A stretch of DNA of 64,000 nt from an uncultured delta proteobacterium (GCA_963753975.1 CAVWEH010000004.1:224001-288000), one strand, 5' to 3'; shown: positions 3,454 through 49,885, numbered from the stretch's first letter. Made by a program: numbers and translations. The notes: generated by a model from the letters alone, not told the origin.

Positions 3454-3738
3454 AGTGAAACTCGAATTTCAGGAACGCAGTGAACTGGAATTCGTTAGCT
3501 GAACTGTCCCGCATCAGCGGCGGCACGGACGAAGCTCCCCGGCATGCGCCGGGCAGGCATCCGGCGTATTACTAACGTGTGACCTTCAGGTTATACGTTG
3601 AAAAAGCTGACGACGACGCCAACAAAGTTAGCCAAAGACCGGGGGCGCGTCCCGCAGGGGAGCGCATAGCAAATTTAAAATTTACCTCACCGGTAATTAC
3701 CGCCTGCAAGACGGTAACTTACAAGCTAATTGGTATCA
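3454..3738. repeat. MITE/REP-like intergenic element (related to 6064-6192 and 53321-53386)
   Basis: Shares TACGTTGA..GACRACGACGCCAACAAAG.TAGC with 6131-6169; contains GTGACCTTCAGGTTAT (3579-3594); ends AATTGGTA+TCA on the stop codon of the adjacent gene. Confidence 0.6.
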
Positions 3739-4503
3739 TTTAGGCGGCATACGCAAAGCACCGTCCAGCCTGATACAGCAGCCGTTGAGCATTGTATTTT
3801 CGATGATATGAATAGCCAGCTTGGCATATTCAATTGGTTTCCCCAGCCGCCGCGGAAAAGGAACGGTCTTGGCCAAATCTTCCTTAACCGCTGCCGGCAG
3901 GCCAGCCATCATCGGCGTATCGAAAAGCCCCGGAGCAATCGCGGCCACCCTTATTCCGTAATCGGCGCATTCGCGGGCAATAGGCAGGGTCATTCCCGCT
4001 ATGCCTGCTTTAGAGCCGCTATATGCGGCCTGTCCTATCTGTCCGTCAAACGCGGCAACCGAAGCCGTATTAACGATAACACCCTTTTCACCTTCTTCAT
4101 TAGGTGTGTTATTGATCATTTGTTCCACCGCCAGCCTGAGAACATTGAGCGTTCCCACAAGATTTATTTGCACTACTTTATTGAAAGCCTCCAGTGGCAA
4201 AGGCCCTTTCTTGCTCATAATCTTTCCCGGATTGGCCACTCCCGCGCAATTGACGGCAACATTTATTTTCCCGAAAGTTTCTATCGTCTTACCAATTGCC
4301 TGCCGGATTTCGGCTTCGTTGGTTACGTCGGCTTTTATAAATATCGCACTTTCCCCCAAGCCCGCCGCAAGCTTCCCGCCTCTTACCGAATCAATATCGA
4401 CTATGGCCGCCCTGGCTCCATTTTTAATCAATTCGATGACCGTGGCTTCCCCTAACCCCGATACTCCGCCTGTTACTAACCCGACCACTTCTTTGATATT
4501 CAT
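3736..4503 (-). CDS. SDR-family 3-hydroxyacyl-CoA dehydrogenase (HSD10/type II-like)
   Basis: TGGVSGLG, NCAG, ASVAAFDGQIGQAAYSGSK; AGGAGG RBS before the ATG at 4503. Confidence 0.92.
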   Translation of the reverse strand: MNIKEVVGLVTGGVSGLGEATVIELIKNGARAAIVDIDSVRGGKLAAGLGESAIFIKADVTNEAEIRQAIGKTIETFGKINVAVNCAGVANPGKIMSKKGPLPLEAFNKVVQINLVGTLNVLRLAVEQMINNTPNEEGEKGVIVNTASVAAFDGQIGQAAYSGSKAGIAGMTLPIARECADYGIRVAAIAPGLFDTPMMAGLPAAVKEDLAKTVPFPRRLGKPIEYAKLAIHIIENTMLNGCCIRLDGALRMPPK

Positions 4504-4598
4504 CATCTCCTCCTTTTTCCATCGAAATATATCAACCACCAATTTTTGTCTGTTTGACTATGCGGCGGGTATAATGCTCCTGCAACTATGAATGGGAG

Positions 4599-5978
4599 TT
4601 ATACCTGGTTTTTTAAAACATTAGTGAAAGGTCTGATCATTTCCACTTTCATTCTTTTCATGAACTCGCGGCGGAAAAACGGAATCTTTGTAAGCAGAAC
4701 TATACTGCTGTTAATTAGCCGCCATTTGTAATTCTTTTGGGGAAAATTGTAAAATCCATGTTTTTTGTAATATTTATGGTCAGCCTGGAAAACTACGCGC
4801 AGTTTGCTCCAAACGGCATCCCGAAATAGCTTTGTGCCCGCAACCTGATAAAATGTTCTTGGTTTTATGTAAGCAAGTTTACTGTACATAACCGCGTTGG
4901 AAGCTACGATTTGCAGAGCGGTATTTATTGCCGCCGAGCTATCCATATCATCACTGACAAATCCAACAAGATTGGAGTCCTGCATCCCGACATAAGCTTC
5001 CAAAATTTCCCGCAGATTATAAATTTGACTAAATGGCCCCGAAATCACAAATCCGATTTGCTTCTCCCGTAGAGCTGGTATGTGACCATTGAAGAAGCTG
5101 CGGTCAAAAAAGCATTTCCATAATGACGAAAGATAGCGGTCGTGAATGGAGCCGGCAAAAAATAAAATATCCGCCGTTTTTATTTTCCGGTTGAAAAAAT
5201 CAATGAATCCATCCTTGCCTTCGTAAACGCAGACATTATCTATGCCGCACTGCATACATCCCAGACAACCGCCTTTGATATCGACAGCTTTAAGTTGCAC
5301 TAATTCAGCGGCTGGAGAAAAAGTTTTTTGTAAATTCTCCAGCATCTTACGGAGATTAGGACTTTTGCTCAGATCATCAACAACAATTAACACCTTTTTG
5401 CCGCTCACCTCCACAGGCATCAGCTTGGCCGGTTCATATGCAGTTTCCTGTGCCGTGAGCGGTTTATAATTTTTTGTCGACGGACCGCCGTTTTTAATCG
5501 CTTTGATAAATAACTCGCCGAAAGTCGCGAGCCTCTGCCTTTCCCTGGATTTATGCAAATCATTCATTTCCGCCGAGTAGGAACCGAAAAACTTCATTTC
5601 CAAATCATCGCTGATGGCGTTGATATAATTGTGGGCGGTATGGTCAAAAAAGTTGATCGACGTGGAAAGGCTTGCCGCCGGCTTTCCGCGGAAAACCGAA
5701 GTTTCTTTTCTTTCGAAAATCAGTTCGATAAATCTTTTGTACTGTGAACAAACAAGAAAAAAATAGAGAGGAAATGCCCAGAGGATGGCATCGGCGGCGG
5801 ATACCTCTGCGATAATTTCCTGAAAATCATTTTTCTCTTTTTCCAGTTTCTTAATTTTCAGAGCTATATCGAAAATCCTGAATTCGATGTCTGGAAATTT
5901 TTGCTGCAGAAAATGAACATATTGCAGGGTAACGCTGATTTGTCCTTTGGGTGAACCATTTAATACCGCGATCTTCAT
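4599..5978 (-). CDS. Tandem flavodoxin-fold NAD(P)H-dependent FMN reductase / iron-sulfur flavoprotein
   Basis: N-terminal LNGSPK; the second domain carries CLGCMQCGIDNVC (ISF-type Fe-S motif) and FFDR. Confidence 0.8.
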   Translation of the reverse strand: MKIAVLNGSPKGQISVTLQYVHFLQQKFPDIEFRIFDIALKIKKLEKEKNDFQEIIAEVSAADAILWAFPLYFFLVCSQYKRFIELIFERKETSVFRGKPAASLSTSINFFDHTAHNYINAISDDLEMKFFGSYSAEMNDLHKSRERQRLATFGELFIKAIKNGGPSTKNYKPLTAQETAYEPAKLMPVEVSGKKVLIVVDDLSKSPNLRKMLENLQKTFSPAAELVQLKAVDIKGGCLGCMQCGIDNVCVYEGKDGFIDFFNRKIKTADILFFAGSIHDRYLSSLWKCFFDRSFFNGHIPALREKQIGFVISGPFSQIYNLREILEAYVGMQDSNLVGFVSDDMDSSAAINTALQIVASNAVMYSKLAYIKPRTFYQVAGTKLFRDAVWSKLRVVFQADHKYYKKHGFYNFPQKNYKWRLINSSIVLLTKIPFFRREFMKRMKVEMIRPFTNVLKNQV

Positions 5979-6063: not shown

Positions 6064-6192
6064 TAATACCAATTCTAAATCAAAGATGATATCGAGGCGG
6101 CTAGGAGGAGGCGACGAGACGTATTGTACATACGTTGAGGAAACCGACAACGACGCCAACAAAGATAGCGCTTTGATTTAGAATTGGAATCA
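6064..6192. mobile_element. MITE-like element with 17-bp perfect terminal inverted repeats
   Basis: CCAATTCTAAATCAAAG (6069-6085) and CTTTGATTTAGAATTGG (6171-6187) are exact reverse complements; non-coding interior; abuts the PPTase stop codon. Confidence 0.7.
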
Positions 6193-6816
6193 GGATAAAA
6201 AGGCATAAGCAACGAATTGACCATCGTGGCTTAAGCTGATGTCCATATCTGTTTTTTTGCCGTCAATATAAACATGCGGCGGTTGAAGCTCACTTTTATC
6301 TTGTTCTCTGTTGATTTTGATGTCACTGAAATTTAGACGGAAAAAATCGGCGAGATGTAGGGCAAGACATTTTCGTAAAAACAAAGAAGGATCTGCTTTC
6401 CCGTCATTTCCTTCCTCAGGTAAAATTTCGACGTTGCAGATTAAATTATCTAATGCGGCAAGACAATCAGAGCCCACACAATGAACGTAACGGAAATCGG
6501 AAAAAAGGCGAACATAAACCGCTTCCGCGTCCGGAATCTTAACCTCACCGTCTAAACACGCCGATTCGGATTGCTGGAGATTTACCGTCCACCGGCACGG
6601 CAAAAAAGCAGCATCAGCACACTTTTTTTTTATGATCTTATAGGCTGTTTCTTTACAAGACCAAAAGGACCACAGCGCCTTATCGGAATTTTCCGCGTTT
6701 CGTACAAAATCAATTTCAGCAGCGGTGAGGATTTTCTTTAGAAAGCGCGAATCCCTGCTTTTCCCTGCGTTCACCGGCTCTTTCAAATCCACGATATCGT
6801 TCCCTACGTAGGGCAA
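6190..6816 (-). CDS. 4'-phosphopantetheinyl transferase
   Basis: VGNDIVD, WSCKETAYK and ISLSHDG motifs; TTG start. Confidence 0.9.
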   Translation of the reverse strand: MPYVGNDIVDLKEPVNAGKSRDSRFLKKILTAAEIDFVRNAENSDKALWSFWSCKETAYKIIKKKCADAAFLPCRWTVNLQQSESACLDGEVKIPDAEAVYVRLFSDFRYVHCVGSDCLAALDNLICNVEILPEEGNDGKADPSLFLRKCLALHLADFFRLNFSDIKINREQDKSELQPPHVYIDGKKTDMDISLSHDGQFVAYAFLS

Positions 6817-7540
6817 AATACTTCTCCTCCATTTGTGCCAGACGGTTAATTATTTGCGTAGCATATTCTCGTTGTATTCGCAGTCCGCTTCCCTCGATAC
6901 GTTCCGGCGAAAACACTTCCATCTGCACCGAAAATTTATCTCCCCAGGCGGGAATAGCGCTATAATTATCCTGCTTATTCCCCCGCAGATAAATACACAT
7001 CACTTTGCAATCCTTCACATCTTTGATAAAACGCCCCACACCGTAAGAAAAACCTTCTTTATTAATTCTCCCGGTGCGGGAACGCCCACCTTCAGGAAAA
7101 ATCATAATACTATGACCATTACGCAACAGGTAAACACACCTATCCATGGTCTTTTTTATCTTTTCCCTGGATCCGCCGCGATCGATGGGAATGCATTTGG
7201 CCAGATAGCACAATACCGCCAGAAAAATATTGCCTTGAAAATTACTTCTTTCCGGTAAATTCCAGGGCAGCTTCTTGTAACCGGTTATATGCTGGCCTAA
7301 GCTGAAAGTGGCGTAGCCTAAAACAAAAGAGTCGATCATCGTCAAATGATTGGCGCAAATAATCCAGGATCCCTTGTGCCGGGCAAATTCACTCGCGCAC
7401 TGCCGACGAATTTCTTTCAAATCCATCACTCGATAAAATAAAATTTTAGCAATAAAGAAATATAAAGGCGCGATGATCAGTACCGCAATTCTGCCTAAAA
7501 AATTCTGTACCTGAATAAATATTTCGGATTTTTTATCCAT
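6716..7540 (-). CDS. Lysophospholipid acyltransferase (PlsC-like)
   Basis: ANHLTMID (HxxxxD), PIDRG and FPEGGRS motifs; the ATG at 7540 follows the ACP stop. Confidence 0.88.
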   Translation of the reverse strand: MDKKSEIFIQVQNFLGRIAVLIIAPLYFFIAKILFYRVMDLKEIRRQCASEFARHKGSWIICANHLTMIDSFVLGYATFSLGQHITGYKKLPWNLPERSNFQGNIFLAVLCYLAKCIPIDRGGSREKIKKTMDRCVYLLRNGHSIMIFPEGGRSRTGRINKEGFSYGVGRFIKDVKDCKVMCIYLRGNKQDNYSAIPAWGDKFSVQMEVFSPERIEGSGLRIQREYATQIINRLAQMEEKYFALRRERYRGFERAGERREKQGFALSKENPHRC

Positions 7541-7544
7541 TTTT

Positions 7545-7793
7545 TTACCCGAGTTTTTGTTTGATAATTCTGACAGCATCGCCGATGGTGCGAATCTTAT
7601 CCGCCTCATCGTCATCAACGCTGATACCGTAAACATCCTCACACTTGATGATCACATCCACCAGACGGGCGGAATTTACTTTCAAATCATTTAAGATGTG
7701 CGTGTCCATTGTCGCCTTTTCTAAAAGAGTCTGGTCTTTGGTATAGACTTTTAAAATATTCTTCATCTCTTCAAAAATTTTTTTCTCATCCAT
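7545..7793 (-). CDS. Acyl carrier protein (atypical NSARL attachment motif)
   Basis: 82-aa acidic protein, DLKVNSARLVDV...EDVYGISVDDDEADKIRTIGDAV. Confidence 0.9.
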   Translation of the reverse strand: MDEKKIFEEMKNILKVYTKDQTLLEKATMDTHILNDLKVNSARLVDVIIKCEDVYGISVDDDEADKIRTIGDAVRIIKQKLG

Positions 7794-7816
7794 AAAACTA
7801 TTCTCCTTATTAAAAA

Positions 7817-9097
7817 TTAATTTTTATCCCACTTTTTAAATATGATACAGCTGTTAACATCGCCAAAACCAAAACCGGCTTTGGCAACAATTCGTAATCG
7901 CGGAAATTCCAAGCATTTTTGCGGAATCTTCGGAGCATATGCCGCAATTTCCGGGTGTACGTCTTCACAATTAATAGAAGGATGTAGGAAACCTTTATAT
8001 ATTTGCAAAACAGAAGCCACGCATTCTATGGCGCCGGCAGCACCCAAACAATGACCAATCAAAGATTTTGTCGCTTGAATGTACGGAAAATTATCAGGAG
8101 TCCTCTCCAATGCTTCCGCCCAGCTTTTCACTTCATGAGGATCGGCATAAGTTGCCGTCAGATGGCCGTTAACGACATCAACTTCAGCCGGATTAATACC
8201 GGCATCGGCCACTGCACCGCGAATACACCTCTTCACCCCTTCAGGATTAGGTGCAGTCATCGAACCTCCCATCCGCTGGCCGCCGCAATTAACATAGCCG
8301 CCGATTATTTCCGCGTAAATTCTGGCGCCCCTGGCCATAGCCGTTTCCAATTCTTCCAAAACCAGCATGGCACCGCCGGAACCGGGAACGAAGCCGCAAG
8401 CAGTAGCGCTCATCGGGCGGGAGCCGGCTTGCGGATTATCATTAAATTTACGGCAAAGTACACGCATGGCATCAAAGCCTCCCCAGATGAAAGGCGTGGC
8501 ACCTTCGGAACCGCCGGCTATCATGCGTTTGGCTAATCCCATCCTTATTCTCCAGAGAGCATCGATTACAGCCTCATTACCGGTGCTGCACGCTGAAGAA
8601 TTCGACGTCACTTTATTGCCGGCGCCGATCAAACCGGAAATACGGGCGCTGGTGCCGCTACCCATTACCTGTTCTACAATACGGCTACCCAATCGTCGAA
8701 CCCTTCCCTCGTTAATCATAGGAACGACACTATTGGCAATCGTATCCATGCCGCCGATTCCTGAACCGGCAATAACTCCTGTGTCCCAATCTATCGTATC
8801 GTCATCGCTATCCGGAATATTAAATCCCGCATCCCTCCAGGCATCCACCGCCGAGACCGAAGCGAAGCCGATATTATCATTAAAGGATAAGAGTTTTTCA
8901 CGGTCGAAATAACTCTTGCGGATAACGTCAAAATTTTCCGGCACGCCCGCAATCTGACACCCAAATTTTAATTCCGCGAGAAGTGGAATAAAACGAATGC
9001 CGGAAACACCATCTCTGAGCGCCTGTTCAAAATCATCCAATCCATGCGCGTTGGGCGCCGCTACACCCATTCCCGTTATGACTACCCTTTTTCTCAT
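7817..9097 (-). CDS. fabF: Beta-ketoacyl-ACP synthase (FabF/FabB family)
   Basis: RVVITGMG, SSACSTG (Cys), NGHLTAT and KSLIGHCLGAAG (His-His), GFGFG; ATGA overlap with fabZ. Confidence 0.9.
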   Translation of the reverse strand: MRKRVVITGMGVAAPNAHGLDDFEQALRDGVSGIRFIPLLAELKFGCQIAGVPENFDVIRKSYFDREKLLSFNDNIGFASVSAVDAWRDAGFNIPDSDDDTIDWDTGVIAGSGIGGMDTIANSVVPMINEGRVRRLGSRIVEQVMGSGTSARISGLIGAGNKVTSNSSACSTGNEAVIDALWRIRMGLAKRMIAGGSEGATPFIWGGFDAMRVLCRKFNDNPQAGSRPMSATACGFVPGSGGAMLVLEELETAMARGARIYAEIIGGYVNCGGQRMGGSMTAPNPEGVKRCIRGAVADAGINPAEVDVVNGHLTATYADPHEVKSWAEALERTPDNFPYIQATKSLIGHCLGAAGAIECVASVLQIYKGFLHPSINCEDVHPEIAAYAPKIPQKCLEFPRLRIVAKAGFGFGDVNSCIIFKKWDKN

Positions 9098-9564
9098 TTC
9101 TCCACCATCACTCCGGTTAGCGTTCCGAGGCAAACTATTTCGCCGTTTTCTCTTTCCAAAGTCGTATCCACTTTAAGAATTCCCTTACGAAAATAATTTT
9201 TTTTGCCCTTCACGATCACCCTTTCGCCCGGCATTACCATTCCGTTAAACTCAACGCCATCAACCGAAGAAAACAAGCTAAGCGGCATATCCATTGCTGC
9301 AGGCCGCATTTTTTTCTGACACGCAAGAAGGTAAATTCCAAAAGCAGTAGCTCCAATTTGCGCCATCGTTTCAATTAGAATCACGCCCGGCGTAATAGGC
9401 CTACCCGGAAAATGACCGCGATAAAAAAATTCATCTTCACGAAAGCGATAAGCACCGGTTATTTCTGCCTCATCAAGACTGATAATTTCATCAATGAAGC
9501 GAAAAGGCTCCTGTTGCGGCACAAGCGCTAAGACTTCCTTGATGACGCCGGCGTCAACCACCAT
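9094..9564 (-). CDS. fabZ: 3-hydroxyacyl-ACP dehydratase (FabZ/FabA hot-dog fold)
   Basis: PQQEPFRFID and FYRGHFPGRPITPGVILIETMAQ motifs. Confidence 0.9.
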   Translation of the reverse strand: MVVDAGVIKEVLALVPQQEPFRFIDEIISLDEAEITGAYRFREDEFFYRGHFPGRPITPGVILIETMAQIGATAFGIYLLACQKKMRPAAMDMPLSLFSSVDGVEFNGMVMPGERVIVKGKKNYFRKGILKVDTTLERENGEIVCLGTLTGVMVEK

Positions 9565-10285
9565 AAAGCCCCCCATTAACATGAATGACCGTTCCTGTAA
9601 TATAATTGGCCCTTGTTGCTAAAAACGCCACCACATCAGCTATTTCCTCGGCCTTGCCCAACCTGGCCAATGGAATGCTGGACATGATCCTCTCCTTGAC
9701 ATGATCGGGAAGTTCCTTTGTCATGGTCGTGTCTATAAAGCCCGGAGCAACGGAATTGACCAGGATATTTCTTCCCCATAACTCCTTCGCCAGCGACTTC
9801 GTAAAGGCATCCAGGGCCGCCTTCTCCATGGTGTAGGGAATCTGTCCTGAATTACCCGTATGCCCAACAACGCTGGAGATATTGATAATTCGCCCCGTAT
9901 TCTGCCGGAGCATAAACTGCCGGAGGATTTTCTTGGTCAGATACCAGGCACCCCGTACAAGTTCACGCTGGCGGTCGAATTCTTCGATTTTCATCGAGTT
10001 GATATCATTGTTGACCGAAATGCCTGCGCTGTTGACAAGGACATCCACACGACCTGCCACTTCCTTGATCTGGCTTACCATCCTGTCTATCTGATCCGGG
10101 TCCGTCAGATCAGCTTCCACCAGGAAGCCTTCCTTGATCTCGGCAAGAACCGCTTTCGACGGTTCTTCCATAACGGGTATGTAGTTGATGCCCACACGGA
10201 AACCTTCGGACGCCAGGGCGCGGGTACAAGCCGCCCCTATGCCCGTTCCTCCACCTGTAACAATTGCCACCGGTTTCTCCATCAT
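9554..10285 (-). CDS. fabG: 3-oxoacyl-ACP reductase (SDR)
   Basis: TGGGTGIG, NISSVVG, GQIPYTMEK (YxxxK), VAPGFIDT. Confidence 0.88.
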   Translation of the reverse strand: MMEKPVAIVTGGGTGIGAACTRALASEGFRVGINYIPVMEEPSKAVLAEIKEGFLVEADLTDPDQIDRMVSQIKEVAGRVDVLVNSAGISVNNDINSMKIEEFDRQRELVRGAWYLTKKILRQFMLRQNTGRIINISSVVGHTGNSGQIPYTMEKAALDAFTKSLAKELWGRNILVNSVAPGFIDTTMTKELPDHVKERIMSSIPLARLGKAEEIADVVAFLATRANYITGTVIHVNGGLYGG

Positions 10286-11274
10286 TTGCCCTCCTCCACT
10301 TTCAACACCATGTGCGTCCAGGATAGCCCGGCGCCTACTATAGCCATGGCAATGCGATCGCCGGCTTTAATTTCATCCCAATGCATACTTAAGGTAGCGG
10401 GCGCGCTGCAACAGCCTGTATTGCCGAACTGATCAACATTATACCAATGGTGCTCAGGATTTATTCCTCTTCTCTCGCTGACACCTTTAAGCATTAATAA
10501 GTTAGCTTGATGACCTATAAATATAAAGCGTTTAGCCTCTGCCGCGAAGGCCTCCTGCAAAATTTTTACGGATTCCGTCGTCTGCCGAATGGCAAAACCC
10601 TGCACAGCATTACCCTCCTGGTGAAAATTCCAATTCCACGTGATTCCTACTTTTTCCCACGCGGAAGGACGGGAATCAAAAATACAATTCATAAAAGCGG
10701 CACGCGAAGGAATTTTCGTAGAAACTATCGCGGCAGCACTGCCATCCCCGAAAAGAACCGCTACACTACGGTCAGTATAGTCGACAGCTTTCGTCAGCGT
10801 TTCCGAGTCCACCAGCAATATATAAGGCGGAAGGCTATCCGGTTGCATTCGGGATAGAAAATTGATTTGCATCCCAAAAGTAGAGCAGGCTGAATTCATA
10901 TCGAGAGAAGGCACTTCAATGCCCAGTTCTGTAGCAATTGCTGAAGCTTCAGCCGGCGAGATGTTATCCGGCGATGAAGACCCGGCAATAACCATTCCGA
11001 TATCTTCAGGCTTTAGTGAAGCTCTTTTAAGCGCGAGTCTCGCGGCTTCCGCTCCCATTTGCGCATTTTTATAAAGTCTGGCTTCAAAGGCTGCGCGCGG
11101 GTCCCTGTTTTTAGTTTTTTTAATATAGTCCAGAGGTAATACTGTCCGGCGATTTTCGATACCCACACGCTCCAAAATCCATTCGTTATTTGTGCCGATA
11201 TCCAAATCTTCCAAAAATTTGTTCGTAATAATATTTTCCGGATTAAAATGTCCCATGGAGTGAAGATAAAGCAT
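10282..11274 (-). CDS. fabH: 3-oxoacyl-ACP synthase III family
   Basis: NSACS, LFGDG, GHQAN and FGNTG (Cys-His-Asn triad), VGAGLSW. Confidence 0.9.
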   Translation of the reverse strand: MLYLHSMGHFNPENIITNKFLEDLDIGTNNEWILERVGIENRRTVLPLDYIKKTKNRDPRAAFEARLYKNAQMGAEAARLALKRASLKPEDIGMVIAGSSSPDNISPAEASAIATELGIEVPSLDMNSACSTFGMQINFLSRMQPDSLPPYILLVDSETLTKAVDYTDRSVAVLFGDGSAAAIVSTKIPSRAAFMNCIFDSRPSAWEKVGITWNWNFHQEGNAVQGFAIRQTTESVKILQEAFAAEAKRFIFIGHQANLLMLKGVSERRGINPEHHWYNVDQFGNTGCCSAPATLSMHWDEIKAGDRIAMAIVGAGLSWTHMVLKVEEGK

Positions 11275-11276
11275 TT

Positions 11277-12476
11277 CTAAACAATCTCCCGTCCGATAAT
11301 CATATTTTGCACTTCGCGCACACCCTCGTAAATATCAATGATATGCGCGTCGCGTGCGAGCTTGGAAATTTCGTACTCGGCGGTAAAACCATAACCGCCA
11401 TGTAAATGAAGCCCTTCCGCTGTACAAAAGAGGGCGGCTTCTGCGGCTGCGTTTTTGGCTAAAGAAGCATAAATACCGGCGTCCGCGGCTTTTTCCTTAA
11501 TTTTACAGACCGCCTTCAAAAGAGCGAGTTCCGCCAGTTCCACTTTTTTCCACATGGTTGTGATCATGTCTCTGGCCACGGGAAGATCGCAAATTCTCTG
11601 ACCAAATTGCTTGCGTTCCCTCGTATAATCCAAAGTAACCGCCAAGGCCCTTTTGGCCAATCCTAAACCGATCGCGGCCACCATGGGCCGGGCGTAATCC
11701 AAAACATCGATAATATATTTAAAACCGAAACGCCGGTCTCCGATAATCTGCTGCGGCTGGATAATTACATCTTCAAAAGTGACACTGGCCGTGTTGGAAA
11801 GACGTTGTCCTAATTTATCTTCCGGCTTGCCGATAATTATTTTACCGCCTGTCGGCAGCGTAATTTCCCTTGTTGCCTGCCCGATATCGGGAATTTCTTT
11901 TGCCGTTACAGGCTCTACCGGAATAACAACACAGGCCATAAAATTGCTCGTCGATTTTCCTACTTTGCAGATAACGGTATATTGGGAAGCATAGGAAGCA
12001 TTGGTTATAAAGCACTTGGAACCGTTCAAAACATAGGAGCCGTCATCCTTTTTGACGATAAAGCTCGTCATCATCGAATTATCCGAACCCGCGTTAGGTT
12101 CCGTTAAACAAAAAGAAGCCAAAAGAGGCTTTTCTACAAAAGGTTTAAGAAATAATTCTTTTTGCTCATCTGTGCCATGCTGGCCGATTACAACATTAGC
12201 CAAATCATTACACATCGCGGAAGTGGAGATGCCTGTGTCGCCGTAAGAGAGCTCTTCGATAATCAGAGCCGATGAAATAACGTCAACCTCAAATCCCTTG
12301 ATGGCTTCCGGGATGCACAAATTAATGATCCCCATTTCCCAGGCTTTGTTAATAATCGCCCAGGGGAATTTATGAGCCTTTTCCATCTCCAAAATGTAAG
12401 GTGTTATTCCATTTTTTACCAATTTCCTCACAGTATCTAAATACGCGAGTTGATTCTCATTAAGACTAAAATCCAT
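11277..12476 (-). CDS. Acyl-CoA/acyl-ACP dehydrogenase family protein
   Basis: FCLTEPNAGSD, LNGSKCFITNA, RKQFG, LHGGYG, IYEG. Confidence 0.92.
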   Translation of the reverse strand: MDFSLNENQLAYLDTVRKLVKNGITPYILEMEKAHKFPWAIINKAWEMGIINLCIPEAIKGFEVDVISSALIIEELSYGDTGISTSAMCNDLANVVIGQHGTDEQKELFLKPFVEKPLLASFCLTEPNAGSDNSMMTSFIVKKDDGSYVLNGSKCFITNASYASQYTVICKVGKSTSNFMACVVIPVEPVTAKEIPDIGQATREITLPTGGKIIIGKPEDKLGQRLSNTASVTFEDVIIQPQQIIGDRRFGFKYIIDVLDYARPMVAAIGLGLAKRALAVTLDYTRERKQFGQRICDLPVARDMITTMWKKVELAELALLKAVCKIKEKAADAGIYASLAKNAAAEAALFCTAEGLHLHGGYGFTAEYEISKLARDAHIIDIYEGVREVQNMIIGREIV

Positions 12477-12573
12477 AAACCAAACCTTTCATTTCGCTTT
12501 CTAGATATAAATTTACAGGACAATGCCTTTGAGGCAGTCTTTTTTCAAAAAAAGAACCTTAATTATTGCCCCT

Positions 12574-14025
12574 TCATGCAGCAACTTTTTTTCCGGGGAA
12601 TTTTTCAACTCCCGCACTTGCCGGCGAATTGATTCCATATTTCGTCTGCAGAAATTTTTCCATAGTTGCGGGATATAAGATATATGCAAGCACGTCTTCA
12701 TCGCTACGGGCAAGGCCGCCAATGCGTTTTTTTGCCGCTTCGATTTCCGGTTCCAGATAATCAGCAGGTCTTCCGGAAACCGGCTCCTGTCCATGCTTGT
12801 AATTCTTTAGTATCTTTTTGGTCAATTCCGGATCAATGGACACCGGAGTTTTTCCGTATAGTCCCAAAACCAGATCTTTAAGCTGGTTAGATACCCGAAC
12901 ATAACGGCCAAAAAGTACATTTAACACGGCTTGTGCTCCGATAATTTGCGATACTGGAGTAACCAAGGGTGGATAACCCATGTCTTTGCGCGTTTGAACT
13001 ACTTCTATGTAAATTTCTCCCAATCGGTCAAGGGCGTTCATTTCTTTTAGTTGGCCGGTTAAATTGGAAATCATTCCGCCGGGAATTTGATGGGCAAGAA
13101 CTCCGTTATCGATAATCGAGAGTTTATGATTCGCCAGATGATGATTATATTTCGGAGCAATATTTTCCAGGTGTTCACCCAGCACCAGCAGTTTGTGTAA
13201 ATCCATTCCGGTCGCACGCTCAGTTCCCTGAAGGGCCGCAACCAGCGGCTCAATGGCCGGCATCGATGTTCTCAGCGCAAAAGGCGCGAGACATGTATCG
13301 ACAACATCAACTCCGGCTTCTATTGCTTTTAAATATGTCATGGAGGCCATGCCGCTGGTGTAATGGGTATGCAAATGCAGGGGCACATTGATTTCTTTTT
13401 TTAAAGCGAAAATCAGATCATAGGCGTCAAAAGGGGAAAGCAGCCCTGCCATATCTTTAATGCAGACAGCGTCCGCGCCCATTTTCTCCAGTTCTTTAGC
13501 TTTCGCCACGTAATAATCAAGGTTATAAACTTCACCACCCAGACGAACATCCGTCAATGAATAACAAACAGCTCCATGAAACTGTTTACCGTTGGTTTTG
13601 ATTCTTTCCGCGCAAGTCTCCATGTTGCGGAAATCATTTAAAGCGTCAAAACAACGGAAAATATCTATGCCGATTTCACAGGCTTTATCAACAAAAGCGC
13701 GGACAACATCATCGGCGTAATGACGGTAACCGACAAGATTTTGTCCGCGTATAAGCATGGCAAAGGGGGTTTTGGTGATATACTTTTTTAAAATCCTTGG
13801 TCTCATCCAGGGGTCCTCGCCCAAGAACCTATGCATTGTATCAAAGGTGGCGCCGCCCCATACTTCCATCGCATGAAAACCGCAATGGTCCATTTCTTCG
13901 GCTATGGGAAGCATATCTTCCGTTTTCATTCGCGTGGCATATATGGATTGATGGCCATCGCGAAAGGTATTATCCTGAATTTTTAGGGGATTCGTGGGAA
14001 CCTTTTTAAAACTGTTCAAAGTCAT
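12574..14025 (-). CDS. Carboxyltransferase of the pyruvate carboxylase subunit B / oxaloacetate decarboxylase alpha / transcarboxylase 5S family, lacking a biotinyl domain
   Basis: DNTFRDGHQS, EVWGGATFD, CIKDMAG, LHTH, HQIPGGM, GYPPLVTP; no EAMKM biotin motif. Confidence 0.92.
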   Translation of the reverse strand: MTLNSFKKVPTNPLKIQDNTFRDGHQSIYATRMKTEDMLPIAEEMDHCGFHAMEVWGGATFDTMHRFLGEDPWMRPRILKKYITKTPFAMLIRGQNLVGYRHYADDVVRAFVDKACEIGIDIFRCFDALNDFRNMETCAERIKTNGKQFHGAVCYSLTDVRLGGEVYNLDYYVAKAKELEKMGADAVCIKDMAGLLSPFDAYDLIFALKKEINVPLHLHTHYTSGMASMTYLKAIEAGVDVVDTCLAPFALRTSMPAIEPLVAALQGTERATGMDLHKLLVLGEHLENIAPKYNHHLANHKLSIIDNGVLAHQIPGGMISNLTGQLKEMNALDRLGEIYIEVVQTRKDMGYPPLVTPVSQIIGAQAVLNVLFGRYVRVSNQLKDLVLGLYGKTPVSIDPELTKKILKNYKHGQEPVSGRPADYLEPEIEAAKKRIGGLARSDEDVLAYILYPATMEKFLQTKYGINSPASAGVEKFPGKKVAA

Positions 14026-14073
14026 TCCTCCCTGTCAACGTTAGCGGGCATCTTCATATAAGCTGCACGCTTT

Positions 14074-15024
14074 TTAGTTTGTCGGGTTAAAATTCTTTTC
14101 AGCTGCTGCGAGCCCGGTAATCGCTTGGCAGGTTACGCCTATTGTTTTGAAAAAATCACGCAGCGGCCGGCCCGGACCAACTTCATAAACTTCCGTGGCC
14201 TTGGCGGCTAAACTTTGCATGTTTTCCCGCCAGCGTACGGTATTACTAATTTGATTCACCAGATTCTCTCTTATTTTTTCAACATCGGCCGAATGAAATC
14301 CGCCGGTAAAATTTGATGTTACTTGAGAGGCATTGTGCGGTTTTATATTCTTGCCGACTTCTTTCAATGTATCGGAAAAAGCATTTTCTATTTTCTTCAT
14401 GAAGCGGCTATGGAACGGAGCACTCACATTCAGATGAACACAGCGAAAAGGTTTTGGAGAAGCCAGCATTTGCTCCAATCTTTTTTCCACTTCTTTTACG
14501 GCGGAAGTTCTGCCGCTTATTACAACCTGATGGGCGGAATTAACATTCGCCATATCTACCGGCATGTCTTCCATTAACTTCTTCAACGTATCAATATCTA
14601 TATCTTCGGAAATAACCGCGGCCATGGCCCCTGCGCCAACCGGTACAGCTTCCTGCATCAATTTTCCGCGGGTTTGAACTATTTTTAGAGTTTCATCCAT
14701 AGGCATCACCCCGGCGGCAACAAGTGCGGTAAATTCTCCTAAAGAATGGCCGCCAAAAAATTTAGGCGTAAAGCCATATCGATGGGCTAATCCCCTCAGC
14801 ATGGCTATTTCCGTTGTTACGATGCAAGGCTGAGTATATTCCGTTAGATTTAATCTTTCATCTTCATCAAAACACAGGGAAGATACATCCCAACCCAGGG
14901 TATCGGAAGCCTCTTCATATGTCTGGCGGCAGACAGAAATTTGTTCATAAAAGTCTTTCCCCATACCCGGCCTCTGCGAACCCTGCCCGGGAAAAACAAC
15001 CGCTATATCTTCAAAATCTTTCAT
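14074..15024 (-). CDS. fabD: Malonyl-CoA:ACP transacylase
   Basis: FPGQGSQ, GHSLGE, VSAPFHS, EVGPG. Confidence 0.95.
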   Translation of the reverse strand: MKDFEDIAVVFPGQGSQRPGMGKDFYEQISVCRQTYEEASDTLGWDVSSLCFDEDERLNLTEYTQPCIVTTEIAMLRGLAHRYGFTPKFFGGHSLGEFTALVAAGVMPMDETLKIVQTRGKLMQEAVPVGAGAMAAVISEDIDIDTLKKLMEDMPVDMANVNSAHQVVISGRTSAVKEVEKRLEQMLASPKPFRCVHLNVSAPFHSRFMKKIENAFSDTLKEVGKNIKPHNASQVTSNFTGGFHSADVEKIRENLVNQISNTVRWRENMQSLAAKATEVYEVGPGRPLRDFFKTIGVTCQAITGLAAAEKNFNPTN

Positions 15025-15107: not shown

Positions 15108-15123
15108 AGCACAATTTATGCCA
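15108..15123 (-). promoter_or_regulatory. Putative sigma54 (-24/-12) promoter of the fab-like operon
   Basis: Minus strand reads TGGCATAAATTGTGCT = GG-N10-GC, about 85 nt upstream of the fabD start. Confidence 0.7.
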
Positions 15124-15986: not shown

Positions 15987-17507
15987 ATGGATACATTTAC
16001 TCTTGCGGCAACCAGCTTTATCATTGCTTTTTCACTCATGCTTACCAGTAAAAAAGATAAGCTGCATGGGTCTTTTGCCGCTCTTTGCACCACTATTTTT
16101 ATTTTGCAAATCGCCGCTTTCCTCCGCCCTATCTTCGCTTCCGAATTTTGGATAAACGTTGAATATATGGGAAGCTTGGTCATCGCGCCTTTTGCTCTTC
16201 GCTTTTTCCGCCATCTGACCCGCAACAGATCTTTTATTTCCCGGGGAATGGTTTTTATTTTCACTTTAATAAGTTTATCGGGTCTTTTTTCCCTCGTTAC
16301 AAAGTTATCTGAATCGCCGCATTTTAAAACCATCATTTTATCTTACACATTCGGCACTCTGGCACTCTGCTATATCGCCCTCTGGCGTCATGTAAGCAAA
16401 CTGCCTCCCAGCACCGAAAAAAAACGCTTGGGGTACCTGGTCGTTGCTTGTCCCCTCGCGGTAATAGTAAGCACTATTGATCTATTCGTTTATTTAGGAT
16501 TCAACTTTCCCCCGATAACCGGTCTGGTTCTATCAGCCTTACTTTATCTGATTTTATTAATCATTGCTTATCCGCAGCTGCATGAATTGCATGATTTTTT
16601 CGCCCGGGCACTCGTAATTTTTATCAGCACGCTTGCCGGCACGATTATATTTTATTTTGTTGCCTTATTTTTCAGCTCCAACATACCTTCTGTTACCAGC
16701 GCGCTTATGGCTTCTTTTTTAATCGTTATTTCCCTTTCACCGATAAAAATGATTTTGAAAAAAAGTTTTAGCTACTTTTATCCCGACAGCAAAGATGTTT
16801 TTACTTCTCTTTATGAATTCGACGAAAAGCTGGAAAGGGAAAAAGCCTTGATGTTAGCGGAAATGGCACCGGTTTTCGCTCATGAAATTCGCAATCCGCT
16901 GGGTTCGATAAAAGGCGCTGCCCAATACTTAAAATCGGAAACACCATCTCCCGAGCAACAAAACCTTCTGGATGTCATTATTGAAGAAGTAAACAGGCTC
17001 AATGCCGTAGTCAATCAATTTCTTGATTACGCCCGGCCCTACAAGCTCGCTCTTAAAGCTCAAAGCATCAGCGTGATTATTCAAAAGGCTATCTCCATCA
17101 TCGCGGTCAATCGGCTGGCGGAAAATATTGCAATTGTCCGGGAGTTGAATCACAACTTACCCGAAGTGGCAGTAGACGAACAACAATTTATGCAGGTCAT
17201 CTTAAATATAGCCTTAAACGCGATCGAATCCATGCCGCAGGGCGGCACTTTAACTTTTCGCACGTCTAACATCGAATCCGGAGCGGAAGGAGCAATAAGC
17301 ATAACAATTCGCGATACCGGAAGCGGAATAAGCAAAGAGGAAATAAAGAATATTTTCAAGCCATTTTTCACAACCAAGAAAAGAGGTGTTGGTCTTGGTC
17401 TGGCTATTTGCCAAAGAATCATTAAAGAGCACGGCGGCATCATCCGCGTAAAATCAATTCCTGCGCAAGGAACTGTATTCTTCATCAAGCTCAATGCAGC
17501 CGGCTGA
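15987..17507 (+). CDS. Membrane-bound sensor histidine kinase
   Basis: Multi-TM N-terminus; FAHEIRNPL H-box, NIALNA, DTGSG, FFTTK, GLGL. Confidence 0.95.
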   Translation: MDTFTLAATSFIIAFSLMLTSKKDKLHGSFAALCTTIFILQIAAFLRPIFASEFWINVEYMGSLVIAPFALRFFRHLTRNRSFISRGMVFIFTLISLSGLFSLVTKLSESPHFKTIILSYTFGTLALCYIALWRHVSKLPPSTEKKRLGYLVVACPLAVIVSTIDLFVYLGFNFPPITGLVLSALLYLILLIIAYPQLHELHDFFARALVIFISTLAGTIIFYFVALFFSSNIPSVTSALMASFLIVISLSPIKMILKKSFSYFYPDSKDVFTSLYEFDEKLEREKALMLAEMAPVFAHEIRNPLGSIKGAAQYLKSETPSPEQQNLLDVIIEEVNRLNAVVNQFLDYARPYKLALKAQSISVIIQKAISIIAVNRLAENIAIVRELNHNLPEVAVDEQQFMQVILNIALNAIESMPQGGTLTFRTSNIESGAEGAISITIRDTGSGISKEEIKNIFKPFFTTKKRGVGLGLAICQRIIKEHGGIIRVKSIPAQGTVFFIKLNAAG

Positions 17508-17561: not shown

Positions 17562-18935
17562 ATGAATAAAATTTTAATCGTTGACGATGAATTAAATATG
17601 CGGTTGGTGTTGTCCGCCATGCTCAAAAAAGAAGGCTATGAAGTTGCTTCCGCCTCCGATGGGCGCGAAGCTCTGCAAATTTTAAAATCCGGTAAAATAG
17701 CTGCGGTAGTATCCGACTTGAAAATGCCGGACATTGACGGCATGGAACTGCTCAACCGTATTTCTGAAAAGTATCCGGAAGTACCTGTGATTATGATTAC
17801 CGCTCACGGCACTGTCGCCACTGCCGTCGAAGCTCTGAAGAAAGGCGCTTTGGATTACATTACCAAACCGTTTGATATAGATGAGTTAAAAAACGTTATC
17901 TCCAAAGCAATAAAAACACGCACTCTAAAAGAAAATGAATTGTTTTTGCCGCCGGAAGAAATAGAAAGAACGGGAATTATCGGCAAGAGCAAAAGTACTC
18001 TGGAGATATTCGAATCTATAAAGAGGGTGGCTCCGACGACGACGACCATCATGATCACCGGGGAGACCGGCACCGGAAAAGAGTTGGTGGCCGACGCCAT
18101 TCATTACAACTCTCCGCGCAAAAAAAATCCGCTCATCAAAATCAACTGCGCCGCCATTTCTGAAACTCTGATGGAAAGCGAATTATTTGGTTATGAAAAA
18201 GGGGCTTACACCGGCGCCGCCATTACCAAGCCGGGGAAATTCGAATTGGCCCATAAAGGGACTTTATTTCTTGACGAGGTGGGAGAAATTCCGCGCGATA
18301 TGCAGGTAAAACTCTTACGCGTTATTCAGGAGCAGGAATTTGAGCGGGTCGGCGGGCTAAAAACAATAAAAGTGGATGTGCGCATTATTGCCGCCACCAA
18401 TCAAAACCTTCTGCAGCAGGTGCAGGCGGGAAATTTTCGTGAAGATTTGTACTACCGCCTCAATGTTTTTCCTATTGACGTCCCACCCCTCAGGGAAAGA
18501 AAAGAAGACATCCTACCTCTCGTTGATTATTTCGTGGATAAATTTAATAAAAAGCTGGGGCTCTCTGTAGCTGTTGACGGCGAAGTAACGGAAATGCTTT
18601 TGCGTTATGAATGGCCGGGCAATATCCGCGAATTGGAAAACCTCATCGAAAGAATGATGCTTCTGGCAAAGAATAATCTGATTACGTCCCAGGAAGTTCC
18701 CGGCGAATTCAAGGCCGCTTTGGATAAAATAGTGACGGCACCGGCAGATGACAGCAAAAAACCGTTTAAAGACTATATGCGCGATCACGTGGAAAATGTA
18801 GAGAAACAAATGATTATTAAGTGCCTCGAGGAAGCCGGCGGCAATGTCACCAACGCAGCCAAACAACTGGGCCTTAGCCGCAAGGGATTGCAGTTAAAGA
18901 TGATTAAATACAACCTGCGCAAGGAATCAAAGTAA
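17562..18935 (+). CDS. Sigma54-dependent response regulator (NtrC/AtoC family)
   Basis: REC domain (DD, DLKMP), [14 protein letters not shown] loop, [10 protein letters not shown], Fis-type HTH. Confidence 0.96.
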
Positions 18936-18990: not shown

Positions 18991-19830
18991 CTAACTTTTT
19001 CGTTCCTGCTCGATGAACTTAGTCGTATTGCGAAAACTGAATATGCCCGGTATAGTGAAATAATCCTTATACTTCTGTTTCAGCTCCGCTTGTTTTTCCG
19101 GCTTTCCGATAGCGTCGCCGATAGAAACAAAGTAATCCTTCATTGCGGCAAGAGCGTCCTGATCCGAAATTTTGCCATGCCCCGGAATTAAGGTTTTTAT
19201 TTTATAGCGGCTGGCGAGCGCATCAAGAACTCTTATCCAGGATGCTACGTTAGCGCCACTCTCGGCATGCAGGGCCGCGTGCATATCAACAAATACCAAA
19301 TCGCCGGTAACGAGGAGTTGGCGTTTTTCACAATAGACAACCACATCGTTCCACGTATGCGCCCTTCCCATATTGCGAATGCGTACAGTCTCCCTCCCCA
19401 TCTTAATTACTCTTTCCTCACCAGGTTTTAAAACCAGATCTGGATACCTGCTGGTTTTTCTGGAATCATTGTCCCACTCTTCCTTGGTGTACGCGCCGGA
19501 AATGATTTTTGCCGCTGGATAAAGCGCGTTCCCACCGGTATGATCGTAATGTGCGTGGGTATTGACAATTGTTATCTGCGCGGCTTTGACTTCATCTCTT
19601 AGTTCTTTTGCCGCCCTTCTCATCTTTGTATCAACAACAAGAGCTTTGGAGCCATCCTCGGAAGTCAAAACAATCGAGTTTCCTCCCCCGCCAAGATATA
19701 CCGTCAATTGCGGATCAAGCTGGATGGTCTCCACCTTTCCGAATTGCTGGTATATTTTCCAGAAATAGAAACCGCCTACAGCAATAATAATTGCTATTAA
19801 CAAACTGACGATAAGCAGAACCTTTTTCAT
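18991..19830 (-). CDS. MBL-fold metallo-hydrolase with N-terminal membrane anchor
   Basis: NTHAHYDHTGGN, AHT, TGDL, IPGHG. Confidence 0.9.
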   Translation of the reverse strand: MKKVLLIVSLLIAIIIAVGGFYFWKIYQQFGKVETIQLDPQLTVYLGGGGNSIVLTSEDGSKALVVDTKMRRAAKELRDEVKAAQITIVNTHAHYDHTGGNALYPAAKIISGAYTKEEWDNDSRKTSRYPDLVLKPGEERVIKMGRETVRIRNMGRAHTWNDVVVYCEKRQLLVTGDLVFVDMHAALHAESGANVASWIRVLDALASRYKIKTLIPGHGKISDQDALAAMKDYFVSIGDAIGKPEKQAELKQKYKDYFTIPGIFSFRNTTKFIEQERKS

Positions 19831-20425: not shown

Positions 20426-20479
20426 CGGTAGACAAAATGCAGGGTCTTATCAAAAAATATGGAAAGGAGTTTTGAATCT

Positions 20480-21652
20480 ATGAAAGCAGGAGAAATCAAA
20501 ACAATCGCAATCATTGGCGCGGGCGATATGGGTCATGGCATTGCCGAAGTTTGCGCCCTGGCGGGGTTAAAGGTAAATCTTTATGATATCAAACAGGAAT
20601 TTGTGGACAAGGGCAAAGGCAAAATAAAAGAAAGCCTGGGAAAACAGGTTGCCAAACAAAAGATGACGGCGGATGACTCCAATAAGATAATAAATAATAT
20701 CCATGGATTCACGGTCTTAAAAGAGGCGGTGAAAGATATTGATTACGCGATTGAAGCCGCTCCGGAAATACTCGAGCTGAAAGTAAAGATATTCAAAGAA
20801 ATTGACGAAAACGCTCCCAAACACGCTATACTCGCTTCCAATACATCCAATATGAGTATTACTCAAATGGCCGCGGCGACAAAAAGACCCGATAAAGTAC
20901 TGGGAATTCATTTTTTTAATCCGCCGGTCATGATGGCCCTTGTTGAAGTTATCCGCGGCCAGAAAACATCCGCCGAGACTATGAATGTCAGTTATGATTT
21001 TATTTTGAGATTAAAAAACTTCAGAGGCGCTATGGTTCCGGTTCGTGTAGAAAAAGATTCACCAGGATTTATGTTTAACAGAATTAATGCGCCGGTTGGA
21101 TTATATCTGGCCGAAATATATGAAAAAGGGCTTATAAATCCTGAGGCCGTTGATGCCAAAATCAGATCAATCGGCGCTCCGATGGGTCCATATGAAACCA
21201 TGGATTTCGCCGGACTGGACATTTACGCCCATGGTTCGGAATATTTTGCCAAAACATTATCTCCAGAATTTAAACCCAGTAACTGGCTTGTAAAAATGGT
21301 CGCAGCCGGCACGCTGGGCAAAAAGACCGGCAAAGGCATTTTCAACTGGCCCGGTGGCACCAGGCCTACGATAGATATGAGTAAAGCCGATCCCAACTTC
21401 GATCCCATGGATATTGTCTGCCTTCAGGTAAATGAGGGTACCAAACTTCTGCAGGAAGGTGTTACAAATAGTGCTGCCGAGATAGATAAAGCTATGGTCA
21501 ACGGAGGCGGTTCGCCCTTTGGTCCATTTGCTCTGGCCAAAGGAATGGGCTGGGCAAAAGTAGCCGAACGATGTGAGGCTATCTCGAAAAAACTAGGTAT
21601 TAAATGGTTTATGCCCACTGAAACGCTGAGAAAAGGGAATATCCAAATTTAG
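20480..21652 (+). CDS. 3-hydroxyacyl-CoA dehydrogenase (NAD-binding domain plus two C-terminal domains)
   Basis: IIGAGDMGHGIA, EAAPE, ASNTS, HFFNPP, PGFMFNR, PMGP, LGKKTGKG; AAGGAG RBS. Confidence 0.95.
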   Translation: MKAGEIKTIAIIGAGDMGHGIAEVCALAGLKVNLYDIKQEFVDKGKGKIKESLGKQVAKQKMTADDSNKIINNIHGFTVLKEAVKDIDYAIEAAPEILELKVKIFKEIDENAPKHAILASNTSNMSITQMAAATKRPDKVLGIHFFNPPVMMALVEVIRGQKTSAETMNVSYDFILRLKNFRGAMVPVRVEKDSPGFMFNRINAPVGLYLAEIYEKGLINPEAVDAKIRSIGAPMGPYETMDFAGLDIYAHGSEYFAKTLSPEFKPSNWLVKMVAAGTLGKKTGKGIFNWPGGTRPTIDMSKADPNFDPMDIVCLQVNEGTKLLQEGVTNSAAEIDKAMVNGGGSPFGPFALAKGMGWAKVAERCEAISKKLGIKWFMPTETLRKGNIQI

Positions 21653-48669: not shown

Positions 48670-48687
48670 AATTCCCCCTATCTACAA

Positions 48688-49884: not shown

Positions 49885-49885
49885 A

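Follow-up and report, generated by a model that had tools for sequence, protein, structure and literature searches.

Gene content of the operon

Here we describe a fatty acid synthesis operon, and above all one flavoprotein encoded in it, from a 64,000-nt stretch of DNA (GCA_963753975.1, CAVWEH010000004.1; called the window below) that covers positions 224001-288000 of contig C4 in a 2.43-Mb genome with 6 contigs and a completeness of 95.1%. The source organism is a Smithellaceae bacterium in the order Syntrophales, and the nearest homologs of the flavoprotein are named Smithellaceae and Smithella. The flavoprotein has the acyl-CoA dehydrogenase (ACAD) fold, and from sequence comparisons we put the chance that it is the enoyl-ACP (acyl carrier protein) reductase that serves type II synthesis of fatty acids (FAS II) in Syntrophales at a little better than even. 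Coordinates without a prefix are positions in the window, and those with C1 or C2 refer to other contigs of the same genome.

The first-pass annotation of this DNA had listed ten co-oriented genes between 6190 and 15024, and the Pfam and NCBIfam assignments bear out all ten, every one of them on the minus strand. Reading in the direction of transcription, the operon starts with fabD for malonyl-CoA:ACP transacylase (14074-15024; TIGR00128, 269.6 bits, cutoff 260.9). It is followed by a 483-residue carboxyltransferase of the 5S/OadA/PycB type (12574-14025; PF02436 (PYC_OADA) and PF00682 (HMGL-like), with 632.5 bits to PRK09282) and by the 399-residue ACAD-fold flavoprotein that is our candidate enoyl-ACP reductase (11277-12476; PF02771, PF02770 and PF00441, all above cutoff). 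After these come fabH for 3-oxoacyl-ACP synthase III (KAS III; 10282-11274; PRK09352, 187.8 bits), fabG for 3-oxoacyl-ACP reductase (9554-10285; TIGR01830, 239.4 bits, and adh_short_C2, 187.7 bits), fabZ for 3-hydroxyacyl-ACP dehydratase (9094-9582; PF07977, 61.5 bits) and a fabF-type gene for KAS II (7817-9133; TIGR03150, 295.9 bits). The last three genes encode a divergent private ACP of 82 residues (7545-7793; PP-binding, 21 bits), an acyltransferase of the PlsC/Aas type (6716-7642; PF01553, 56.9 bits; its top NCBIfam model is an acyl-ACP:phospholipid O-acyltransferase domain) and a private 4'-phosphopantetheinyl transferase (PPTase; 6190-6816; PF01648, 40.3 bits). The acyltransferase coordinates are those of the longest open reading frame (ORF), and the gene probably begins only downstream of the ACP stop codon.

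The genes are tightly packed, as had been noted: the coordinates of fabH and fabG, fabG and fabZ, and fabZ and fabF overlap, and 2 nt separate the ACAD stop codon (11277-11279) from the fabH start at 11274. This gene order is not a product of chance, because 19 of 20 loci in other Syntrophales genomes show it again. With separate genes for FabD, FabH, FabG, FabZ, FabF and ACP, the Pfam and NCBIfam assignments describe a dissociated FAS II set. Only FabD reaches its equivalog cutoff, and the other FAS genes are family-level matches that fall below theirs. The same searches found no FabI, FabK, FabL or FabV among the operon genes, in agreement with the original observation.

The operon proteins are distinct from their canonical counterparts in the same genome. 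The operon FabF is 32% identical (blastp) to the canonical one encoded at C1:47928-49172. The operon ACP reads DLKVNSARLVD where the canonical ACP has DLGADSLDLVE, and in an alignment of 17 operon ACPs it is 64-81% identical to other operon ACPs versus 33% to canonical AcpP.

The ACAD-fold flavoprotein

The protein has the N, M and C domains of the ACAD superfamily together with the catalytic glutamate, E384 of the IYEG motif. That this glutamate is kept had been pointed out earlier and is seen in the translation, and it is retained in all 20 of the orthologs that we examined. The top NCBIfam model is AcrC, at 248.6 bits with a cutoff of 640, and the cutoffs of all the families were missed, so the protein lies within the superfamily and outside the Bcd/AcrC equivalog, and it has no etfB-etfA neighbor.

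An insertion of about 20 residues had also been described, and the translation does hold it (PVEPVTAKEIPDIGQATREITLP). Alignment with pig medium-chain acyl-CoA dehydrogenase (MCAD) places the insertion in the middle domain, after the strand equivalent to AFTGFIVE, where it forms a loop of approximately 20-22 residues (around residues 187-210). Across orthologs the loop is steady in length at 20-23 residues, with one genome having a shorter loop, and its sequence is not kept. The AlphaFold (AF2) model of the protein has a pLDDT of 94.6 and is weakest at this loop. A Foldseek search with the model returned MCAD and bacterial butyryl-CoA dehydrogenases (Bcd) as top matches, with a TM-score (TMq) of 0.90-0.91 and 32-34% identity. 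We also predicted a complex of two ACAD copies with the operon ACP, which gave a score of 0.01 (mark, 0.32); no control complexes were folded, and the result counts neither way on binding.

The ACAD belongs to a tight family that, in our samples, is restricted to the order. A single-copy ortholog with 67-97% identity is present in 108 of 121 Syntrophales genomes sampled (92 of the 99 that are of high quality). Of 251 genomes sampled across the phylum, 9 had a match at E<=1e-90, and all 9 are Syntrophales, leaving none in the 242 outside the order. A comparison with 1.84 billion representative sequences (50% identity) returned, apart from fragments, a single full-length relative, at 73% identity; every other full-length match was an ordinary ACAD with 40% identity or less. 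All 79 of the named loci in a species-representative collection belong to Smithella, Smithellaceae, Syntrophaceae, Syntrophus, Syntrophales, Syntrophobacterales or unclassified "Deltaproteobacteria" or "delta proteobacterium".

The position of the gene is kept as well as its sequence. In 20 loci from 20 Syntrophales genomes, the ACAD adjoins fabH in 19 and fabD in 18, counting two in which the carboxyltransferase lies in between. At one locus, L021, the ACAD stays beside fabD and fabH is not adjacent. Most Syntrophales families have a FabA-like gene between fabH and fabG, which is missing from the operon of the family studied here. As a separate observation, one locus (L036, G011:C77, 10874-13928) has fabH, fabG and fabF in succession with neither a FabZ nor a FabA-like gene detectable between them.

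The operon as the only source of FabD, FabH and FabZ

A search with PF00698 found one FabD in the genome, that of the operon, plus a FabD-like remnant of 32 positions with an internal TAA (C1:47469-47564). The remnant sits between yceD and the canonical acpP-fabF genes and looks like what is left of a canonical fabD that has been lost. There is likewise one FabH-type gene (TIGR00747 search), besides one weak partial match, and one FabZ. The other match of the FabZ search is an ApeI-like dehydratase (C1:156476-156727) in an unrelated ketosynthase cluster. That region, C1:146001-158000, looks like a second lipid-type cluster, in which the dehydratase is joined by two ketosynthases, an ACP, a thioesterase, PlsY and a polysaccharide deacetylase.

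In this genome the canonical locus is shortened to yceD-acpP-fabF, without fabD, and three operon-bearing genomes have the canonical locus in this form. The picture is similar in near-complete Syntrophales relatives, where FabD is single-copy in four of five and the sole strong FabA/FabZ-domain genes in all five are the two of the operon. Three Syntrophales families do not have the operon. Their genomes have no ACAD ortholog (0 of 3, 0 of 1 and 0 of 1), searches of five genomes from these families turned up no FabF of the operon type, and in three of the four examined the canonical locus is yceD-fabD-(fabG)-acpP-fabF.

Since the only FabD, FabH and FabZ are in the operon, all fatty acid synthesis in this organism must use operon enzymes. 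For this reason we rejected the idea of an accessory cluster dedicated to a special lipid. The first-pass annotation had read the operon as making a specialized lipid, and this survives only in part: the operon would serve general fatty acid synthesis, not a side product alone, and a share of what it makes may be channelled into a particular lipid by its private ACP, PPTase and acyltransferase.

Sister operons with a FabL-like reductase

Operon-type FabF, at 58-64% identity, also occurs in six genomes of the phylum outside Syntrophales, and none of these has the ACAD. Five of the six sister loci (L048, L049, L051, L052 and L053) encode instead a short-chain dehydrogenase/reductase (SDR) of approximately 311 residues within the operon; in the sixth, L050, there is just the stretch from fabG to the PPTase. 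L049 and L053 have the SDR exactly in the slot of the ACAD, with fabD on one side and fabH on the other. Elsewhere it is upstream of fabH (L048), between fabD and fabG (L051) or beside fabZ (L052).

The five SDRs are 52-72% identical among themselves. FabL is the top NCBIfam model in four of the loci and the second in one, at 106-121 bits with a cutoff of 328. When we searched the Smithellaceae genome with all five, no ortholog of the sister SDR was found. Four of the five sister genomes searched keep a canonical FabZ elsewhere, which makes the operon accessory in those four. Taken together, this looks like a displacement within one type of operon, with an SDR in the sister operons and the ACAD in Syntrophales.

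Known enoyl-ACP reductases

A separate housekeeping fab locus and FabI, FabK or FabV had been named earlier as things to look for. The locus is there, in the yceD-acpP-fabF form described above. The genome has 12 SDR ORFs, and none of these is FabI- or FabL-like by top match or cutoff. For FabK, we found five ORFs of the nitronate monooxygenase (NMO) family, scoring 147.6-248.7 bits on the FabK model with a cutoff of 453.1, and none of the five is in a fab context. At E<=1e-40 the best NMO ORF is matched in 49 of 61 Syntrophales genomes, with orthologs at 64-83% identity. There was no ortholog at this threshold in three genomes sampled from each of the operon-bearing families f20, f21 and f24. 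Five operon-bearing Syntrophales genomes (three single-contig, genus g24) show only partial NMO matches of about 30 bits, and in one of the five, G074, a search for SDRs found only three of the adh_short_C2 type, all FabG-like, and so no FabI or FabL. Searches for FabV with PF12242 and PF12241 were blank in the Smithellaceae genome and in five genomes, and also in control genomes, so they had no positive control and do not show absence.

Two genes may be mentioned here. One is an NMO/FabK-like gene at C1:34069-35065 that is apparently split into ORFs of 107 and 286 residues, beside an enoyl-CoA hydratase. The other is in the window itself (58218-60491, minus strand) and encodes a 757-residue fusion of an old yellow enzyme (OYE)-type FMN oxidoreductase with a pyridine-nucleotide disulphide oxidoreductase, an architecture like that of 2,4-dienoyl-CoA reductase.

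Proposed role of the ACAD

We propose the following route through the operon. FabD would load malonate onto the operon ACP, itself activated by the operon PPTase; FabH would prime synthesis and FabF would elongate the chain; FabG would reduce the 3-oxo group and FabZ would dehydrate the product. The ACAD would then reduce trans-2-enoyl-ACP to acyl-ACP, replacing the SDR-type reductase of the sister operons, and the PlsC/Aas-type acyltransferase would move the acyl chain from ACP onto a glycerolipid acceptor. We infer both the use of ACP thioesters and the reductive direction, in which butyryl-CoA dehydrogenase works in fermenters; some of the ETF-dependent MCAD/Bcd enzymes that share the fold are reductive. 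The electrons would come from reduced electron-transferring flavoprotein (ETF) or another low-potential donor, and the genome does encode an acd-etfB-etfA set elsewhere.

The first-pass annotation had offered two roles for the ACAD, a non-canonical enoyl-ACP reductase or a desaturase. It is the reductase role that has gained, from the fixed position beside fabH, from the sister SDR, which in two of five loci takes the same slot, and from the relatives without FabK, the one of them checked having no FabI or FabL either; the desaturase role is not favored.

Several points weigh against a reductase role. ACADs normally act on CoA esters. The case is built from comparative genomics, and ACP as the substrate carrier is presumed. 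The sister SDRs are presumptive enoyl reductases that score below the FabL cutoff. Neither the window nor the 20 loci showed an etf gene within the operon, with operon proteins as the only queries and no ETF-sized unassigned gap seen, and no other electron-donor gene is fixed in the operon. The five NMO ORFs, although all are below the FabK cutoff, are present in this genome, and the best of them is widespread in the order. FabV is a weak point for the reason given above, and the reductase survey covered the SDR, NMO and FabV families, with FabMG-, MDR (medium-chain dehydrogenase/reductase)- and OYE-type enzymes not searched for. Finally, canonical AcpP, AcpS (C2:455099-455446), FabF and PlsC (C1:385980-386360, 124 bits) are kept outside the operon, so the operon ACP and AcpP may divide the labor between them.

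Because there are FabK-like NMO ORFs in the genome, a trans-encoded reductase is conceivable here. Under this explanation an NMO enzyme or an unrecognized reductase carries out the enoyl reduction and the ACAD does something else, such as editing or salvaging acyl thioesters. The score of the best ORF (248.7 bits) and its close orthologs in many Syntrophales genomes speak for it. However, the NMO ORFs are outside any fab context and under the FabK cutoff, the ortholog was not found in the sampled f20, f21 and f24 genomes, and the NMO family search gave nothing beyond partial matches of about 30 bits in five such genomes. It also leaves unexplained why the SDR of the sister operons is gone exactly where the ACAD appears, and we consider this explanation unlikely. 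A different suggestion gives the ACAD a CoA ester as substrate and the task of making or trimming the primer that FabH condenses; it could, for example, reduce an enoyl-CoA and so yield a short saturated acyl-CoA starter. Translational coupling of the ACAD to fabH would fit such a role, as would the CoA dependence of its closest solved relatives, MCAD and Bcd, and syntrophic organisms of this kind are rich in enoyl-CoA intermediates. A primer enzyme would not fill the enoyl-ACP reduction step in genomes without FabI, FabK or FabL, however, and what the sister operons have in this slot is a FabL-like SDR instead of an enzyme for primers. In L021, moreover, the ACAD keeps with fabD and is not adjacent to fabH. 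We regard a primer role as quite unlikely.

The last alternative is that the ACAD works in the oxidative direction on acyl-ACP, as a dehydrogenase or desaturase, taking a saturated intermediate back to trans-2-enoyl-ACP for the synthesis of unsaturated fatty acids. There is a precedent in FabX of Helicobacter, a flavoenzyme that is reported to dehydrogenate acyl-ACP for unsaturated fatty acid synthesis (PMC8626469), and the FabA-like gene that directly follows fabH in most Syntrophales genomes would suit such a pathway. Yet trans-2-enoyl-ACP already arises in each cycle through FabZ and FabA, which means that an isomerase of the FabA type can do without a dehydrogenase, and the family studied here retains the ACAD though its operon has no FabA-like gene. 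The fold of FabX is NMO, not ACAD, and the reductase step would stay unfilled. We find an oxidative role very improbable.

A bolder form of the reductase proposal would make the ACAD the founding member of a new, ETF-fed class of enoyl-ACP reductases that replaced the SDR reductase across the whole order and joined its only FAS II. Such an enzyme would let syntrophs pass the electrons of acyl-CoA oxidation, of which they cannot easily rid themselves, straight into lipid synthesis, or save energy through a bifurcating reaction like that of Bcd-EtfAB. We hold this extended version to be doubtful.

Regulation

A sigma-54 type -24/-12 element, TGGCAT-N5-GTGCT (GG-N10-GC), is present on the minus strand at 15108-15123 and starts 99 nt upstream of the fabD start. 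In 12 of 19 loci a similar element is found at a distance of 65-113 nt upstream of fabD, compared with 0.39 of 19 expected from the background rate, a significance that is overstated because the interval was picked after viewing the data and the loci are related. In the window as a whole the motif is no more frequent than chance predicts (27 matches, 30.2 expected); it is the conserved place upstream of fabD alone that counts as evidence.

Divergent from the operon, on the plus strand, are genes for a membrane sensor histidine kinase with a seven-transmembrane (7TM) N-terminus (15987-17507; HisKA_7TM, HisKA and HATPase_c) and a sigma-54-dependent response regulator of the AtoC/NtrC type (17562-18935; Response_reg, Sigma54_activat and HTH_8). 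The same kinase/regulator pair is upstream of the operon in a distant relative (L025). The promoter and the sensor pair appear to control the operon: transcription would start from the sigma-54 promoter upstream of fabD, under the divergent kinase and sigma-54 activator.

Carboxyltransferase and neighboring genes

The carboxyltransferase has the HMGL-like TIM barrel and PYC_OADA catalytic domains. Its PRK09282 match covers model positions 3-442 of 591, and because the match ends there we conclude that it has no biotinyl domain. We considered whether a short ORF at 12513-12794 could be a frameshifted biotinyl domain and rejected it, as its translation shows nothing of the kind (a Pfam scan was not run).

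Among the loci, the carboxyltransferase lies between fabD and the ACAD in L019 and L020 only, both of the same family as our genome, and it follows the PPTase in L032, from one other family. Orthologs occur in 19 of 41 Syntrophales genomes, with an operon-less family among them. With this distribution we rejected the carboxyltransferase as a core member of the operon; it is a family-specific insertion. It is the sole copy of its type in the genome (blastp), and, speculatively, it could help to supply malonyl-CoA by transcarboxylation in Smithellaceae. Three carboxyltransferases of the 12S type are encoded elsewhere in the genome. A 12S-type carboxyltransferase at C2:90061-91522 was matched in two pieces, one of which has an internal TAA, and may be a frameshift or a pseudogene.

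Downstream of the PPTase, on the minus strand, is a gene for a 459-residue protein with an N-terminal FMN-reductase/flavodoxin-like domain (4599-5978; PF03358, 78.3 bits), for which a sequence search found no relative in the PDB. It follows the PPTase in L019 and L020 only. Next to it is an SDR gene (3736-4542, minus strand; adh_short, 156.6 bits) that is also present in L019 and L020 and is directly beside the ACAD in L021. The two genes follow the operon only in the family studied here, and their connection to it is uncertain.

The window has several other features. A 3-hydroxyacyl-CoA dehydrogenase gene (20459-21652, plus strand) is a few kb from the operon, past the sensor pair and a gene for a metallo-beta-lactamase-fold protein (18991-19830). 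At 39863-41404 on the minus strand there is a 513-residue protein of the HpaB family, which also includes 4-hydroxybutyryl-CoA dehydratase. The region 46825-51046 is a possible defence island, consisting of a HerA/DUF87-like ATPase gene (46825-48669), an unassigned ORF of 398 residues (48688-49884) and a DruA (Druantia) gene (49886-51046). The region is low in G+C (0.367 at 48-50 kb).

Comparison with known systems

Enoyl-ACP reduction is the most varied step of bacterial fatty acid synthesis and an antibiotic target. If the ACAD does fill this step, it would explain how fatty acids are made in genomes without FabI, FabK, FabL or FabV, and it would tie lipid synthesis to flavin/ETF electron flow in syntrophs whose way of life is at the thermodynamic limit. 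The operon is found in a cultured genus, and the SDR-bearing sister operon is a natural control. Our search of the full-text literature, which has subscription journals largely outside its scope, found no paper on an ACAD-type enoyl-ACP reductase or on this operon.

In E. coli-type FAS the gene order is yceD-rpmF-plsX-fabH-fabD-fabG-acpP-fabF, with FabI as the reductase. The operon described here shares the FabD, FabH, FabG, FabZ, FabF and ACP families with canonical type II FAS, but it has an ACAD where no FabI, FabK, FabL or FabV is present, its own ACP, PPTase and acyltransferase, and apparent sigma-54 control. A 2022 review lists FabI, FabK, FabV, FabL, FabL2, FabI2 and FabMG as the classes of enoyl-ACP reductase, and the term acyl-CoA dehydrogenase does not occur in it (PMC9260719). 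The described classes are all either SDRs (FabI, FabL, FabL2, FabI2, FabV and FabMG) or a TIM-barrel FMN enzyme (FabK). The reaction that we propose is the same, but the ACAD fold with FAD is unrelated to either, and an ACAD-fold FAD reductase, if true, would be a mechanistically different class.

Bcd/EtfAB complexes (PDB 4l1f, 5ol2 and 6fah) have the same fold as the ACAD, with a TMq of 0.91 to 4l1f, and its best NCBIfam model, AcrC, is an acryloyl-CoA reductase. The physiological role of these enzymes is to reduce enoyl thioesters. Unlike them, the ACAD, which is 32-33% identical, has an extra loop of approximately 22 residues and no adjoining etfBA, and it is found in a FAS/ACP context rather than a fermentation one. 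The ACADs MbtN, PigA and RedW (PDB 4irn and 6af6) share the fold and act on carrier-protein thioesters, but they are oxidative and have special substrates. The ACAD scores below the cutoffs of all three models (35.7 bits for MbtN, cutoff 700; 158.9 for PigA, cutoff 500; 153.1 for RedW, cutoff 650).

The sister operons are also among the closest systems. They have the operon-type FabF, a divergent ACP (44-56% identity), the PlsC-type acyltransferase, the PPTase and FabZ in the same gene order, together with FabA-like, FabH and FabD genes where these are present. They differ in having the FabL-like SDR instead of the ACAD, which in two of the five occupies exactly the ACAD slot.

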